64,000 nt of DNA from a virus (Duplodnaviria > Caudoviricetes), in IMG/VR virus record IMGVR_UViG_3300042013_000067, positions 1 to 64,000 of that record, one strand, 5' to 3'. The notes under the pieces were generated by a model that did not search any database, was not told where the DNA came from, and saw only the letters and a list, made by a program, of their open reading frames with translations. The position numbers and the translations under genes are program-made. Below, piece after piece: positions 1,225-8,510 of this stretch. How positions within the stretch are numbered: the first letter of the stretch is position 1; each line of letters starts with the position of its first letter.

Positions 1225-3291
1225 ATGACAACCATCAACTCGACGCCGCGGATTGTCTACGGCGGCATCAACGACAAGTCCCGTGGGACTCCGTCGCGTG
1301 CACCAATCACGTATCCCCAGCACGCCCCGCTGTTGCGTCTGTGGTGTGAGACCGGTGACCACAAGACCACCTTTCTCGGTAACGAGAACAGTGACTTCAA
1401 CAGCATGTACGGTGCCAATACCTTGGCCCGCCGTGGTAAGTTCTTCAACCTGCAATCGCTGCTGGCAGAAACCCTGCTCGGCGCCGGCAACGGTTTCTTC
1501 GTTAAGCGTCTGATTCCAGCTGATGCCAAGAAGTCGCGTATGCTGGTCGGTCTGGAAATCGTCCGTGACGAGATCCCGGCTGTTCAAGAGCGTCTGTCGG
1601 GCTTCAACTACAATGGCCAGATCAACCCTGGTCAACCTGCGGTACTGCCACCAGTCGATGGCTACCGTGCGCGTGTGGTCCTGATGCCAGTTACTGGCGA
1701 ACCAGGCACCGCTACCGAAATCCCTGGCACCCTGCTGGCGGAAGTCGATGGTACTCAATCCACCATCTACCCGCTGTTCGAGCTGCCTGCTTCGTACTTC
1801 GGTGCAGCCGGTAACAACCTGGGTATCCGTATCTGGGCACCGAACGAAAAGACCAACGAAGTCTGGGACGAAGTCACCGCTGATACCTTCAAGACTCGCA
1901 TGTTCCGCATGCAGTTCATGCAGAAGGTGGCCAACACCAACATCCCGGCGATCGTCATGACCGCAATGGGTGAAGACTACGTCGATGTGTGCTTCACTGA
2001 AGGTGCGTACAGCGCATCGACAGATAAAGAGTACTACGCTGGCGACGTGTTGATCAAAGCGTACACCGACGACGGTATCGTGTCGGGCCTGGCTCCATTG
2101 ACTTCCCCGTTCAGCAAGATCTACATCTACGATGAACAGATCAAAGCAGTCCAGGACATGATCTACGCGCGTGAGCTCGCACTCAACCCTGCGGTCGCCG
2201 TAACCATCAGCCAGTCGAGCCAAATCGACTTCCTGACCGGCGCTAGCAACGATGGCGATCTGTACCAAGCGCTGTACCTGCTGGGTGCATTGGACGGCGG
2301 CATCACCTTGAGCGACGGTACTACCGTTTACGCTACCGGCGGTGAAGACGGCACCATGAACCACGCCAAGTACGAAGAACTGGTTACCGTCGAGAACACT
2401 GCGTTCGGTCAACTGGGCGACCTGTACGAAAACGTGCCGCTGTATCCATTCTCGCACATCTACGACACTGGTTTGTCGATGGATGGCAAGATCGCCATGA
2501 TGAACGTGCTCGGCCAACGCCGCGACCTCAAGGTCGTTTTCACCACCTACGTGGAAGCTGAAGGCCGGGCACCGACCCTGTCTGAAGAACTCTCCCGCGG
2601 TCAGGTGCTGATGACCCGTCTCAAGGCCTACCCTGAGTCGACCCTCTATGGCACCGGCATCTGCCGTGGCGAGGTGGTCTATCAGACGGGCGAGCTGATG
2701 GACGGCGGTTACAGCAAGCTGGTACCTCAGGTACTGGACTACGCTCAGAAGTGGGCGAACTTCGCTGGTGCCGGTACCGGCATCTTGCGCGATGGTGCTG
2801 ACATCGACGTGGACCCGAACAACGAAGTGTCGTTGATCAAGAACCTGAACGTGCCATTCTTCCCATCCCGTGCACAGTCCAGTGCTTGGGCGTCGGGTGG
2901 TACTTACTCGCTGACCTGCGATACTCGGACTAACTACTACCCTTGCGTTCGTTCGGTTTACCAGGACGAAACATCGGTGCTGCTGTCTCCGATCACCACC
3001 GGCATCGCCTGTGACGTTGTGCGTCTGATCCACAAGATCCACAAGAAGTTCTCGGGCAACAGCAAGCTGACCAAAGAACAGCTGATCGAGCGCTCTGATA
3101 AAGAGATCACGAAGTTGGTCGAAGGTCGTTACGCTGGCCGGGTTCAGATTCGCCCTGAGACTTACATCACGGCAGATGACGATAACAACGGGTTTACCTG
3201 GCACTGCAAAGTGCGGCTGTACGCGAACAACCCGCGTACCACCATGTTCTTCGAACTCGAAACCTACCGCATGGACGCTCTGGCTGCTTAA
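1225..3291 (+). CDS. tail sheath protein (phiKZ gp29-like)
   Basis: 688 aa, RBS AGGAG; N-terminal GIxDxS..P...PQHAP pattern and C-terminal sheath-like region; directly upstream of tube gene. Confidence 0.85.
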   Translation: MTTINSTPRIVYGGINDKSRGTPSRAPITYPQHAPLLRLWCETGDHKTTFLGNENSDFNSMYGANTLARRGKFFNLQSLLAETLLGAGNGFFVKRLIPADAKKSRMLVGLEIVRDEIPAVQERLSGFNYNGQINPGQPAVLPPVDGYRARVVLMPVTGEPGTATEIPGTLLAEVDGTQSTIYPLFELPASYFGAAGNNLGIRIWAPNEKTNEVWDEVTADTFKTRMFRMQFMQKVANTNIPAIVMTAMGEDYVDVCFTEGAYSASTDKEYYAGDVLIKAYTDDGIVSGLAPLTSPFSKIYIYDEQIKAVQDMIYARELALNPAVAVTISQSSQIDFLTGASNDGDLYQALYLLGALDGGITLSDGTTVYATGGEDGTMNHAKYEELVTVENTAFGQLGDLYENVPLYPFSHIYDTGLSMDGKIAMMNVLGQRRDLKVVFTTYVEAEGRAPTLSEELSRGQVLMTRLKAYPESTLYGTGICRGEVVYQTGELMDGGYSKLVPQVLDYAQKWANFAGAGTGILRDGADIDVDPNNEVSLIKNLNVPFFPSRAQSSAWASGGTYSLTCDTRTNYYPCVRSVYQDETSVLLSPITTGIACDVVRLIHKIHKKFSGNSKLTKEQLIERSDKEITKLVEGRYAGRVQIRPETYITADDDNNGFTWHCKVRLYANNPRTTMFFELETYRMDALAA

Positions 3292-4762: not shown

Positions 4763-5402
4763 GGTCAGTCAACTAATGCCTACCCATGTGGACGGTGTTG
4801 ACAGTTTGGGGAACACCTTTAGGATCCACCTAGTCGGTTTTATGCCGACTGGTTTGGATGAGTTGGCACACTTACCTAACCTGTACCTACACGACGCAGC
4901 AACCAACTATCACTTCTTTGTGCGCCTAGAGTTCACAGGTGATGTTGCGGCTGCACGTAACCAGCTGAGTCATTACGACTTTGACATCGTCGTGGAAATG
5001 TACACTGAACTCGTAGCGCTGTACGTACGTCAAGGTGGGATCCATGTACCAGACGGTGCGCGTATCTCTGATGTCGAACAGTTGATGAGGATGTTCTACG
5101 CCATGGGTGTTACACATTCCTTAGGCTGGTTGTACCGTGGGGCCTCCCAAAGCTTTATCTTCGAAGTGGGTGTTGTATTTTTTCATGTCTACGAAGGTGA
5201 CCCTACCCCGCAATCCTTTTCGGTGTTCGTTGATGGCGTACGGCATCAGTGTGAGGTACTGGCCAGTCCCACTAAGATCAAACTCGATCCTTGGGCACTG
5301 TTCGAGATAAAACCACAGTTGTTTATCCAACTGGAGGATTGGTTCAACGACGTGGTTAACAAGTCGCGTTACATCAAAGCCTCGTTTAAGATACCGCACT
5401 AG
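4755..5402 (+). CDS. hypothetical protein
   Basis: GGGGAG RBS before ATG 4755; overlaps upstream stop; ends before hairpin. Confidence 0.6.
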   Translation: MNKVSQLMPTHVDGVDSLGNTFRIHLVGFMPTGLDELAHLPNLYLHDAATNYHFFVRLEFTGDVAAARNQLSHYDFDIVVEMYTELVALYVRQGGIHVPDGARISDVEQLMRMFYAMGVTHSLGWLYRGASQSFIFEVGVVFFHVYEGDPTPQSFSVFVDGVRHQCEVLASPTKIKLDPWALFEIKPQLFIQLEDWFNDVVNKSRYIKASFKIPH

Positions 5403-5404
5403 AC

Positions 5405-5440
5405 GACATAAGGGGAGGCGATGCCTCCCCAGTCTTTTTT
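5405..5440. terminator. hairpin terminator (CATA-hairpin-T tract)
   Basis: GACATAA-GGGGAGGC-GAT-GCCTCCCC-AGTCTTTTTT. Confidence 0.75.
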
Positions 5441-5486
5441 ATTTTGAGTAGTGGTCTTTTGTCATCGTTCTGAGCACCACGTAGAG
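5439..5486 (-). pseudogene. orphaned duplicate 3' end of the 6379-7611 gene (LYVVLRTMTKDHYSK*)
   Basis: aligns codon-for-codon with LYIVLRTLTQSHYGR* at 6426-6379; shared 12-mer CGTTCTGAGCAC at 5466 and 6406. Confidence 0.8.
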
Positions 5487-5498
5487 ACTTTTTAAAGA

Positions 5499-5507
5499 CT
5501 ATATCAC
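5499..5507 (+). promoter_or_regulatory. candidate early promoter for HNH gene
   Basis: TTTAAAGA-CTATATCAC. Confidence 0.65.
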
Positions 5508-5534
5508 GGACATGGTAACACTGTGAGGTAAACC

Positions 5535-6338
5535 ATGACAACGAAGTTCATTGATATCACCGGATTTAAATTCGGTATGCTGACTGTCTTGTACCGAGAG
5601 GACACACCGCCAGGCAAATGGGTTTGTCAGTGTGAGTGTGGCAATAAGCGTTCCTGTCTTAGCGGCACTTTACGACGGGGTCGTGCCACGTCATGTGGAT
5701 GCGGACGTCGTCCAGATATTGCTGGTCAGCGGTTTGGAAAGCTTATGGCATTACGTACCGCTGAAAGGGAGGGTCGAGCCCTACACTGGTTATGCATCTG
5801 TGACTGTGGTGAGGAAACCGTGGTTAGTGGTGATTGTTTACGTAATAACAGGACTGTATCTTGCGGCTGTTTCCAGCGTGAGAAGGCGGCTGAGATGTTT
5901 ACCACACATGGACTGAGTGGTAGCCGGGAATACAAAATCTGGAACTCAATGATCCAACGTTGCCAAAGTGACCATCCTAACTACGGAGGTCGTGGCATTA
6001 GCGTTTGTGATCGGTGGAAGAATTCCTTTGCTGCTTTCTACGAGGACATGGGCCCGCGTCCTAACGAAAGCTTAACCTTGGATCGTAAAGACAGCGACGG
6101 TGATTACGAACCTAGTAATTGCCGTTGGGCGGACAGGACCGTCCAGTCTGTGAACCAAGGTATTTCCATTTCTAACAAAACCGGTGTTAGGGGTGTCAGC
6201 ATAACCAACACTGGTAAATTCCTAGCCGAACTTAGGTTACACGGTGAAACGAAACTCAAGCAGCAATTCGACACATTGGAAGAAGCAACCGAAGCTAGAC
6301 GTAAAGCTGAAGTGCTTCACCATCATCCCCTACTGTGA
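5535..6338 (+). CDS. HNH homing endonuclease with two N-terminal Cys-rich repeats and C-terminal AP2 domain
   Basis: two D.xG.xFG.L...W.CxCxCG...SCGC repeats; LDRKDSDGDYEPSNCRWA nuclease core; NKTGVRGVS...FDTLEEA..AR..AE AP2 motif. Confidence 0.85.
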   Translation: MTTKFIDITGFKFGMLTVLYREDTPPGKWVCQCECGNKRSCLSGTLRRGRATSCGCGRRPDIAGQRFGKLMALRTAEREGRALHWLCICDCGEETVVSGDCLRNNRTVSCGCFQREKAAEMFTTHGLSGSREYKIWNSMIQRCQSDHPNYGGRGISVCDRWKNSFAAFYEDMGPRPNESLTLDRKDSDGDYEPSNCRWADRTVQSVNQGISISNKTGVRGVSITNTGKFLAELRLHGETKLKQQFDTLEEATEARRKAEVLHHHPLL

Positions 6339-6380
6339 CATAACGAGAGGAGGGCAGTGCCCTCCTCTCTATTATTTTTT
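6337..6380. terminator. hairpin terminator between convergent genes
   Basis: GACATAAC-GAGAGGAGGGC-AGT-GCCCTCCTCTC-TATTATTTTTT. Confidence 0.75.
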
Positions 6381-7611
6381 ATCGGCCGTAGTGTGACTGA
6401 GTGAGCGTTCTGAGCACGATGTACAGAAGTGTGCCTGTTCGAACCGCAGCAATCTGAGCTTCGTACTTATTACGGCCAGTAGCAGCACGCACCAGTTTCT
6501 CAGTTTCAGTTCGCAGCAACATTACCGATGGATCAGTCGATCGGGATGCCGTCAACAACGCTTTAAGCTTAGCCACGTTAGTAGCGAGGTCATTGCGCTG
6601 TACCGCTGGCACCCGGTTAACGTACAGGTGATCGAAGGCGTATAATAGCACTTCCTTAACGATCTCTTGCAGGTAACCTTGGTGCGGGGCAAAGTAGTTG
6701 TTGGACATGTATTTAAGCGTTGTGATCAGTAAAGGTTTCGGCATGGTATTCATGGCCGATCCTACGACGTCTACAAGCTCGTCTCGGACGAAGTTACGCT
6801 CTGAGGGTATGATGTTGTTGATGTAGCGCATAAAGCCCGCATAGCCGTTCTTACGGTCTTTGAGGACCAACTCCCCATCGGTGTTGATCGATGTATCAGA
6901 CGACGTCTTAACCCGCACCCCAGTATCACTGAAGTGTTTGTGGATCGCATAGATCTTCTTGATCAACTCACGGATACGCGATTGGGTATCGGTTACCGTA
7001 CGGATCAACATGCCGTCAGGGCTGTAGTCCTGCAGGCAGCGGTAGTAGATTGACTTCGAGCTAACGATATCTTCAGCACGTGCACGGATCAAATCACGCC
7101 ACGAACCATACTTACGGATGTCGAAGCGTCCGTTCAAGGCGAGGTATACCGCAGTAGCTACTTCCTTATCCGCTGGGTATTGGAAACGCTTAACCAGCAA
7201 AGAGGTAATGAAGCGATAGTGCAGGACCATGTACGCATGGACCATGGCTTCGTGGCGTAGAGACTGTGGCACGCCCGTTGCGGTCATCAGTCGATGGACG
7301 ATGTACGCTGGGGTATAGTTGAAGGCGTCTGACATGACGTTGAATTCGTGGTTGATCGATTCGATCTTACGAAAGTCTGCGATGAATAGATCTTCATCGA
7401 TTTCCAAGACTTCCTCATACCACGCATCACGGTCACTGTCGAAGAACTTAATTGGGTTTACACCCAACAGTACCCCACCGAAAAAGGCGGAGTGGTCTTC
7501 GTTACGGTTCATAAAACGGATGGAGTATTGAATCACCCGCTTACAGAAAGCTGCATCAAATTTTACGTGATCGAACTGTCGATCAAATACATCTTTAATC
7601 GTGGTTGCCAT
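6379..7611 (-). CDS. conserved Chimalliviridae protein, probably virion structural (phiKZ gp32 region)
   Basis: 410-aa ORF; synteny downstream of tube gene. Confidence 0.6.
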   Translation of the reverse strand: MATTIKDVFDRQFDHVKFDAAFCKRVIQYSIRFMNRNEDHSAFFGGVLLGVNPIKFFDSDRDAWYEEVLEIDEDLFIADFRKIESINHEFNVMSDAFNYTPAYIVHRLMTATGVPQSLRHEAMVHAYMVLHYRFITSLLVKRFQYPADKEVATAVYLALNGRFDIRKYGSWRDLIRARAEDIVSSKSIYYRCLQDYSPDGMLIRTVTDTQSRIRELIKKIYAIHKHFSDTGVRVKTSSDTSINTDGELVLKDRKNGYAGFMRYINNIIPSERNFVRDELVDVVGSAMNTMPKPLLITTLKYMSNNYFAPHQGYLQEIVKEVLLYAFDHLYVNRVPAVQRNDLATNVAKLKALLTASRSTDPSVMLLRTETEKLVRAATGRNKYEAQIAAVRTGTLLYIVLRTLTQSHYGR

Positions 7612-7715: not shown

Positions 7716-8510
7716 ATGTCGGACAAAACAAAGCGGGTACTGCTAGCGTTGACGGGTGGGTTAGACTCCACCGCTATGTTGCTGAAGGCCATGCAGAAGA
7801 AGTATGAAGTCACCTACACTCACCTAGAGGGTGGTCAGCCGGCTACGCAGGTTAAGGCAGAGAAAGAAGCGATTGAAAAGATCATGCGCACAATGCACAA
7901 ACGCTTCCCGGATCAACCAGCCCCACGCTTTATCCGTAGCATGCTAAAGGTTGATGCTAGCCAGACGATGATGCCGGTTAAGCAACTACCGGCTTGGTTC
8001 ATGCATTTGGTCAGTATGGTTTCTAATACGTCGACTGATGAGTACTTTGACGAAGTACACCTTGGCTATGTGTTGAACGATGATGCGGCATATGCCTGCG
8101 TGCCTCTGGCGGCTGCCTTCGAGCATTTGTGCAAGGCTATCTACGGCCTCGAATTCAATCCGCCTAGGCTGGTGTTCCCTGTCTTGCGTTTTCGTAAAGG
8201 GGCTTTATTAGAGCTGATTGAGCAGTACAAACTCGAAGACGTAATCTCCTACTGCGAATTACCACAGTTGTATGACGAAGGCTGGCGTCCCTGCGGCTTA
8301 TGCGCCGCCTGTTACCGCCATCTGCGGATTAGGGCGGATTGGAAGAATGCGAATGACGCCAGATACTTAGGGCATCGGATGATCAACTACGATCAGCGCA
8401 CTAAACAGCAACCGGCAGAACTCGAAACGTCTACCATTGACGAGCTTCGCCGGTTGGCTGAAGCCGGTCCTATTGAACAACCTACCGTAACGGAGCTTCA
8501 GGATGAATAA
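7716..8510 (+). CDS. QueC-like PP-loop ATPase (7-cyano-7-deazaguanine synthase family)
   Basis: N-terminal LTGGLDST PP-loop; C-terminal YC...PCGLCAAC zinc site. Confidence 0.7.
   Translation: MSDKTKRVLLALTGGLDSTAMLLKAMQKKYEVTYTHLEGGQPATQVKAEKEAIEKIMRTMHKRFPDQPAPRFIRSMLKVDASQTMMPVKQLPAWFMHLVSMVSNTSTDEYFDEVHLGYVLNDDAAYACVPLAAAFEHLCKAIYGLEFNPPRLVFPVLRFRKGALLELIEQYKLEDVISYCELPQLYDEGWRPCGLCAACYRHLRIRADWKNANDARYLGHRMINYDQRTKQQPAELETSTIDELRRLAEAGPIEQPTVTELQDE

Follow-up and report, generated by a model that had tools for sequence, protein, structure and literature searches.

We describe a putative mobile cassette of ≈940 bp that appears to enter a core virion gene of chimalliviruses without an intron, by replacing the end of that gene. 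The stretch of DNA analyzed here, hereafter the window, is the first 64 kb (64,000 nucleotides) of IMG/VR record IMGVR_UViG_3300042013_000067, a complete phiKZ-like jumbo phage genome of 283,622 bp with direct terminal repeats. Among named phages, it is closest to Pseudomonas phage Noxifer, itself phiKZ-like (about 75–81% nucleotide identity over this region). The cassette lies 15 codons before the stop codon of its target gene, and we put the probability that it is an intron-less homing cassette at about 80%. The comparative data, which are data on sequences, cover the anatomy of the element, its polarity, its patchy and site-specific distribution, at least two apparent displacements of a native gene end, and a seemingly intact, conserved nuclease.

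The cassette spans positions 5487–6426 and is composed of an upstream region, a gene for a nuclease of the homing-endonuclease type, a hairpin, and 15 new codons for the target gene, the C-terminus of which reads LYIVLRTLTQSHYGR (Table 1). A preliminary description of this locus had recognized a diverged copy of the last 15 residues of the target gene on the far side of the nuclease gene, at 5486–5439 on the minus strand, and this observation holds. The two copies lie 940 bp apart and match without gaps at 32 of 48 nucleotides (18 of 21 at the heads of the repeats), and their local alignment score of 31 exceeds the maximum of 24 reached in 3000 shuffles. In the 64 kb, on both strands, the displaced copy, or relic, is the sole other place that matches the gene end at 30/48 or better. 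Behind each copy of the gene end come an A-run, a G+C hairpin, and TTATGTC, a succession reported in that description as well and seen again in the sequence, in the predicted fold, and in the terminator scan. The nuclease gene is the only open reading frame (ORF) between the two copies and is convergent with the target gene. No group I intron or intein was found: the target ORF is unbroken, the nuclease is encoded on the other strand, and Rfam returns neither an intron nor another RNA family at E ≤ 1.

Comparison with relatives shows which of the two ends is native. Eight lineages without the nuclease (Noxifer, L002, L005, L014, L092, L093, L094, and L095, where L numbers are our handles for the loci compared) end like the relic, with LYIVLRTMTKDHY[AS]K before the stop codon, as the preliminary description had expected of HNH-less relatives. 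Noxifer lacks the ≈940 bp, and its gp026, which ends LYIVLRTMTKDHYAK, is followed directly by a hairpin and the convergent gene gp025. In the nuclease-free lineages, the convergent stop codons are 37–42 bp apart wherever both genes are present, and the cassette is missing. A second carrier lineage, L009 with its twin L010, has the same layout as the window, and these comparisons support the proposed insertion ≈15 codons before the gene end. The C-terminus is the best-conserved part of the target protein (...RTGxLLYIVLRxxTKxHYxx) across 120 homologs, none of which ends in LTQSHYGR, and thus the contrary case named at the outset, an HNH-less relative ending ...TLTQSHYGR, did not turn up. The relic matches the Noxifer end at 39 of 48 nucleotides, equal to the gene-wide identity of 81%, and has a natural Val-Val variant in common with L014. 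Among native terminators, that of L005, which belongs to the same clade as the window, resembles the relic's terminator most (score 30 of 50), and the two hairpins are nearly alike. The relic is therefore the resident gene end, and the expressed end is the one that arrived with the cassette.

Two direct repeats do not by themselves give a polarity, and the order could in principle be reversed, with the present end as the old, diverged resident and the 5486–5439 copy brought in by the cassette. The relic, however, is the copy that fits the clade consensus, down to the L014-type variant and the L005-type terminator, and the present end is unique among the 120 homologs; we therefore consider this order very improbable. 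The genome is also a metagenome-derived virus record, a circumstance in which an assembly artefact or a chimeric contig comes to mind. Because the genome is complete with terminal repeats, the gene is intact, the flanks are syntenic with Noxifer, and L009 and L010 show the same layout in two independent samples, we regard the chance of such an artefact as negligible.

The target gene is the ortholog of phiKZ gp32, 201phi2-1 gp36, PhiPA3 gp017, and Noxifer gp026, and its product has 90% amino acid identity to that of the last. It is present in 290 phage records, in part of which it is annotated as a virion or head structural protein, and the 201phi2-1 ortholog gp36 has been detected by mass spectrometry. 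It is a core, virion-associated gene of chimalliviruses; in the text of the transposon sequencing (TnSeq) preprint, we came upon nothing about whether phiKZ gp32 is essential. The change in its tail is narrowly confined. Nucleotide identity to all relatives drops from about 70–80% to 44–58%, and it does so only in the last 39 alignment columns; codons −8 to −1 (6382–6405) are all changed save His-Tyr, mostly at two or three positions each. The new ends of the window and of L009 are identical over their first 21–24 nucleotides. We considered this likeness as a special signal and set it aside, as by our estimate it is not clearly beyond chance given the codon constraints; most of the stretch is also present in several native ends.

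Two elements of the preliminary description stand only in part. It held that the cassette supplied both a recoded C-terminus and a terminator for the target gene. The divergence of the last 39 columns agrees with the former, but not the latter, since the intrinsic-terminator scores of both hairpins apply to transcripts of the plus strand only, the T-tracts being the complement of the target gene's final Lys codon, stop codon, and A-run. The hairpin at 6345–6369, which came in with the cassette, folds at −22.8 kcal/mol on the plus strand and −24.3 kcal/mol on the minus strand (z −4.9 and −6.2) and, taken with its T-tract, resembles a terminator of the nuclease transcript. At 5412–5445 and 6345–6378, relic and gene therefore share their final bases with the terminator tail of an opposite-strand transcript, a double use that may explain why the 3′ part of the relic has been retained. 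The second element was a promoter-plus-HNH unit between the repeats. The HNH gene is there, on the plus strand, but the promoter was not recovered: apart from an RBS-like (ribosome-binding-site-like) GAGG, the region at 5487–5534 has no sigma-70-like site on the plus strand and no enriched motif. A candidate promoter motif found upstream of the nuclease in both the window and L009, GACYTATATC, was rejected because it is not enriched (6 matches in the window versus 4.8 expected).

Table 1. Features of the cassette and its flanks, in window coordinates.
Feature	Position	Strand	Details
Convergent neighbor gene, 219 aa	4743–5402	+	Ortholog of Noxifer gp025; adjoins target gene in relatives without the nuclease
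Native hairpin and T-tract behind the relic	5412–5445	+	Hairpin 5412–5430, 8 bp, −17.9 kcal/mol; terminator-like for the convergent 219-aa gene
Relic: displaced native last 15 codons and stop codon (LYVVLRTMTKDHYSK), no start codon	5486–5439	−	39/48 nt and 13/15 aa identical to the Noxifer native end
Region upstream of nuclease gene	5487–5534	+	RBS-like GAGG at 5525–5528; homologous to L009 counterpart; promoter assumed
Nuclease gene, free-standing, homing-endonuclease type, 267 aa	5535–6338	+	phrog_374 "HNH endonuclease", E 7e-86
Cassette hairpin	6345–6369	.	10 nt past target stop codon; perfect 12-nt inverted repeat, 11–12 bp stem
New last 15 codons of target gene (LYIVLRTLTQSHYGR)	6382–6426	−	Tail unique among 120 homologs
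Target gene, 410 aa	7611–6379	−	phrog_2921, E 4e-150; apparent chimera of resident body and incoming tail

The nuclease is modular, with two Cys-rich beta modules (residues 8–56 and 63–112), a PacI-like His-Me finger core (residues ≈120–210), and a C-terminal AP2 domain (residues ≈212–267). Its structure model, derived from a 51-sequence alignment, has a predicted local distance difference test (pLDDT) score of 93. The core superimposes on PacI (3m7k) with a Z-score of 6.4 (76 residues, root-mean-square deviation 2.7, 21% identity), a second search gave Z 6.1 over 80 residues, and the best Foldseek match of the core is again PacI (3ldy, probability 0.72), with I-HmuI, Gme HNH, Cas8-HNH, and colicin E9 ranked lower. 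PacI is thus the top match in three structure searches, each score being modest alone. The AP2 domain matches 7wq5 (Z 6.7) and 2gcc (Z 6.3), and when the whole model was searched with Foldseek, nothing better than weak Tudor-like and AP2 matches came back. At an E-value of 0.15, a profile of the family can be aligned with the I-HmuI HNH motif; the invariant Arg184 stands at the position of the canonical catalytic histidine (I-HmuI H75), and an invariant tyrosine follows seven residues on. Tyr191, Asn195, and Asn207 are invariant in the 51 nuclease homologs. PacI is itself a His-Me finger enzyme that has a loop tyrosine in place of the histidine (PMC5714182), and Tyr191 is probably the counterpart of that residue. 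The window's nuclease combines the marks of a PacI-like His-Me finger enzyme, namely a beta-beta-alpha-metal core fold, a loop tyrosine in lieu of histidine, and a metal-binding asparagine. The enzyme looks functional because it keeps all of the invariant and near-invariant residues of the family and because its nonsynonymous divergence (dN) from the 63%-identical L009 relative is 0.32 while synonymous divergence (dS) is saturated, a pattern indicative of purifying selection.

Homologs of the nuclease occur at the same site, in the same orientation, and 3′ of the same gene in L009 and L010 (63% amino acid identity), L011 (48%), L062 (45%), and L075 (45%), the last of these being 201phi2-1 gp35, annotated as an HNH endonuclease; the two closest homologs with known genomic context are among them. 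Five carrier lineages thus stand against about 75 loci with no nuclease at this site, and such presence and absence at one conserved site, incongruent with the host phylogeny, is the distribution looked for in a homing gene. In a target-gene tree built without the gene's last 54 nucleotides, the window falls within a group of non-carriers (99/99) and L009 forms a pair with the non-carrier L093; a single clade of these two carriers is rejected by the approximately unbiased test (p-AU 7.8e-5). In L009 and its twin L010, which comes from a separate sample, a relic of their own that reads FYIVLRTMTKDHYSK before its stop codon marks the same junction; their replacement end, MCMAHYSNR, differs from that of the window. 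This L009 end (4851–4900, minus strand) resembles the C-termini of a distant chimallivirus clade (ICMRHYSNT and MTMRHYSNI; compare L057 and L069) and includes an extra codon of the L005 type; these resemblances hint that it may derive from a distant lineage.

The relics themselves bear on when the native ends were displaced. They differ from native ends and from each other at 8–10 nucleotides and at only one or two amino acids, with frame and stop codon kept, and random substitution would produce so synonymous a pattern with a probability of 5e-5 to 1.6e-3. Divergence between the window's relic and the Noxifer end is likewise coding-like (P 5e-4). This coding-type divergence points to ends that were each displaced separately and not long ago, and hence to at least two fairly recent displacements, one in the window and one in L009. 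Each relic also has a terminator similar to the native ones of the lineage that hosts it. The nuclease genes are old relative to each other, with 62% nucleotide identity between the two carrier cassettes and between their nuclease genes, compared with 76% between the host genes, which suggests that the cassette lineage is older than its stay in either genome.

That divergence could in principle reflect one ancient insertion inherited vertically, in which case the patchiness would stem from repeated precise loss between direct repeats and the nuclease would no longer move. The window and L009 nuclease genes are indeed as diverged as the host gene, or more so; the 21-nt repeat heads, 18 of which positions are identical in the window, would permit a deletion that restores a native-type end; and the target-gene tree does not separate gains from losses. 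An old relic, however, should decay, yet both keep their frame, their stop codon, and 13 or 14 of 15 residues, most differences between the two are synonymous (P 5e-5), and each has a terminator that tracks its host lineage. At least three or four independent precise losses would also be needed. We consider this history unlikely. Relative dating of the cassette against the host gene was attempted and was defeated by the saturated dS.

Several points weigh against a homing cassette that spreads by gene-end replacement. The catalytic histidine of the nuclease is replaced by an invariant arginine, the fold matches are modest (Z about 6), and searches of Pfam (E up to 10) and of the PDB with the single sequence gave nothing useful above threshold. 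No enzyme activity or cut site is on record for the nuclease or its family. The carrier cassettes are at least as diverged as their host genes, so that no recent transfer is apparent among the sampled genomes, and none of the 120 homologs of the target gene proved to be a donor with the window's end. Scans of metagenome and viral contigs with the four closest nucleases yielded distant family members only, none above 50% identity, and added no carrier of this cassette. The statistics on the relics draw on 48 nucleotides. Finally, the 201phi2-1-like carriers L011, L062, and L075, in which the nuclease gene separates the target gene from its next neighbor, have no relic past the nuclease gene, alignment scores there being no better than those of shuffles; gene-end replacement is therefore not the sole mode at this site.

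Those relic-free carriers would also suit a nuclease retained chiefly to attack or exclude relatives that infect the same cell, or one that has been domesticated, the duplication then being a one-off scar of sloppy repair. PhiPA3 gains an edge over phiKZ in competition from an intron-borne HNH endonuclease (PMC11620839, PMC12908238), and the apparent purifying selection on the window's nuclease would fit such a role. Against a one-off scar stand the recurrence of the same junction in two carriers and the fact that the relic is exactly the homology arm that homing requires, and a role as a weapon is in any case compatible with homing. As an account of the locus in place of homing, we find it quite unlikely.

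If the element is a homing cassette, as we favor, its parts can be placed in a single scheme. In target-strand order, it would comprise the 15 replacement codons, the hairpin, and the inverted PacI-like HNH-AP2 gene with its upstream region, and its arrival would have pushed the native 15 codons and native terminator downstream, where they are kept as an untranslated relic. In a cell infected by both a carrier and a cassette-free phage, the enzyme would cut or nick the native 3′ gene end of the latter. Repair from the carrier genome, with the gene body on one side and the relic plus downstream DNA on the other as homology arms, would then copy the cassette in while the target gene stays whole. 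The original break or join may have lain at the 5′ edge of the relic, at codon −16/−15. The new allele would no longer be a substrate because codons −8 to −1 are rewritten, and the relic alone would not be one because the upstream half of the site is missing. Deletion between the repeat heads, of the kind discussed above, would allow the cassette to be lost again and would recreate a native-type end.

Some further observations concern the same gene end in other genomes. A Thr-to-Cys change at the conserved Thr-Lys motif requires two base changes and yet recurs in many lineages: Cys alleles are found in L011, L062, L075, and the new end of L009, and also in the non-carriers L002, L014, L093, PhiPA3, L257, and L258. 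These recurrent alleles may be resistant forms left behind after loss of the nuclease, or they may be a coincidence; the tie between Cys and the nuclease was weakened when two more Cys alleles proved to belong to non-carriers. In the non-carrier L095 (1640–1750), the stop codon (TAG tctag) is followed after ≈60 nucleotides by an apparent, internally deleted relic (CTGTACA ... GTAAAATAAAAAAAG, a hairpin, and TTATGCCG). L092 (1760–1790) and L095 have an odd end, CACTACTCAAAATAGTCTAG, in common, although they are not sister lineages, and the pattern in the two may be the footprint of an earlier cassette. L092, a contig that carries protein P0005, also departs from the usual gene order: where the convergent gene would be expected after the target gene, it has a same-strand ORF (1815–2408, plus strand) that weakly resembles virion structural proteins. 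The usual order is present in another contig with P0005, and L092 represents either a rearrangement or a chimeric assembly.

Beyond this site, we scanned 150 loci that carry the nuclease family for flanking duplicates at the nucleotide level, a scan that misses diverged cases such as L009. It produced two further, unrelated cases, in both of which the nuclease gene is flanked by partial copies of a neighboring gene that represent its 5′ end. In L212 (2313–2387 and 3008–3082), ≈45 N-terminal residues of a 589-residue HerA-like ATPase, including the Walker A motif, are duplicated, and in L120 (2269–2386 and 2985–3098; also in L117) the duplication covers ≈30 N-terminal residues of a small ORF. 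These cases suggest that gene-end replacement may be a recurrent habit of this HNH family.

A broader joint reading can be offered only tentatively, and taken as a whole we think it rather doubtful. On this reading, the six rewritten codons would mark the recognition core of the nuclease, and the site would be a hot spot of an arms race in which carrier-linked immunity alleles drive bursts of change in the near-invariant C-terminus of a core virion protein. The Thr-to-Cys alleles of non-carriers and the degenerate relic of L095 would be footprints of invasion and loss. The nuclease family would spread generally by gene-end replacement, 5′ ends included (L212 and L120), and the enzyme may in addition serve as an interference weapon between co-infecting nucleus-forming phages.

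The surroundings of the locus include a tail sheath gene (phrog_3242) as well as tail-tube-like and QueC-like genes. The divergent neighbor of the target gene (7716–8510, plus strand) encodes the QueC-like PP-loop protein (PF06508, E 1e-7). In relatives, a small gene of 86–96 residues lies between the target gene and the QueC-like gene; the window is without it.

The closest parallels to this arrangement come from fungi. In the WHO elements of the yeast FBA1 locus (Coughlan et al. 2020, PMC7282813), as in the window, an endonuclease gene separates a complete gene from a fragment of that gene's 3′ end located downstream; these elements carry a resistant replacement 3′ end, and the fragment serves as a homology arm, the roles that we propose here. 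Unlike the window's enzyme, WHO proteins are intein-like LAGLIDADG/zinc-finger nucleases of yeast nuclear genomes, with ≈400 bp replaced and with tandem clusters, whereas the window has a PacI-like HNH-AP2 gene in a lytic jumbo phage, 15 replaced codons, an orientation inverted to the target, a hairpin, and a single relic. The model proposed for WHO elements has been tested in part, cleavage by WHO proteins having been demonstrated experimentally (PMC7282813), while our element is known from its sequence. The mobile endonuclease ORFs (mORFs) of fungal mitochondria (Allomyces macrogynus atp6; Glomus atp6, atp9, cox2, and nad3; Beaudet et al. 2013, PMC3630166; also PMC6279837) likewise place a foreign C-terminus and an endonuclease ORF upstream of the native C-terminus, and there too the native copy resembles close relatives, with mostly synonymous differences, while the inserted copy is divergent (PMC3630166). 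Their enzymes, however, are of the LAGLIDADG or GIY-YIG type, the genomes are those of organelles, and the endonuclease ORF often continues the reading frame of the host gene (PMC3630166). The window, and L009 with it, has the features common to both systems, in that the element stands between an intact gene and a displaced end fragment; the fragment appears to be the resident, and the expressed end is divergent.

Among phages, the free-standing endonucleases SegF, SegG, and MobE of T-even phages (Belle et al. 2002; reviewed in PMC2988022) are also found next to conserved genes with a patchy distribution, and are expected to spread by break repair during co-infection. Unlike the window's nuclease gene, however, the cases described either occupy the space between genes or divide one gene so that it yields two polypeptides (nrdA, gene 60, and gene 43), and the review makes no mention of a duplicated gene end (PMC2988022). 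As for the enzyme, PacI and the IPA-HNH class (PMC5714182; Barth et al. 2023, PMC10448857) similarly have a His-Me core that lacks the catalytic histidine and conserves the loop tyrosine. IPA-HNH proteins, by their description, also have an AP2 DNA-binding domain and are missed by the Pfam HNH_3 model (PMC10448857). PacI differs in being a dimeric restriction enzyme without AP2, and the described IPA-HNH proteins have an N-terminal HNH, whereas two Cys-rich modules precede it in the window's nuclease. The phage literature that we searched describes free-standing endonucleases between genes or splitting them and intron-borne HNH enzymes in phiKZ-like phages; within that limited literature, we found no description of gene-end replacement in phages. 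Spread by this route has thus already been described for yeast and fungal mitochondria, and a phage case with an HNH-AP2 enzyme may be new.

For annotation, the locus is a caution that stray short gene tails and odd C-termini beside HNH genes can be scars of homing. With ≈940 bp and a cultured non-carrier relative in Noxifer (host Pseudomonas fluorescens SBW25), it offers a compact natural system in which to test homing and self-immunity, and it bears on current work on endonucleases as weapons of competition in nucleus-forming jumbo phages. Phage homing endonucleases have been described as entering essential genes only by way of introns, inteins, or gene splitting; the cassette described here would represent a third route, in which a short replacement end is brought along.

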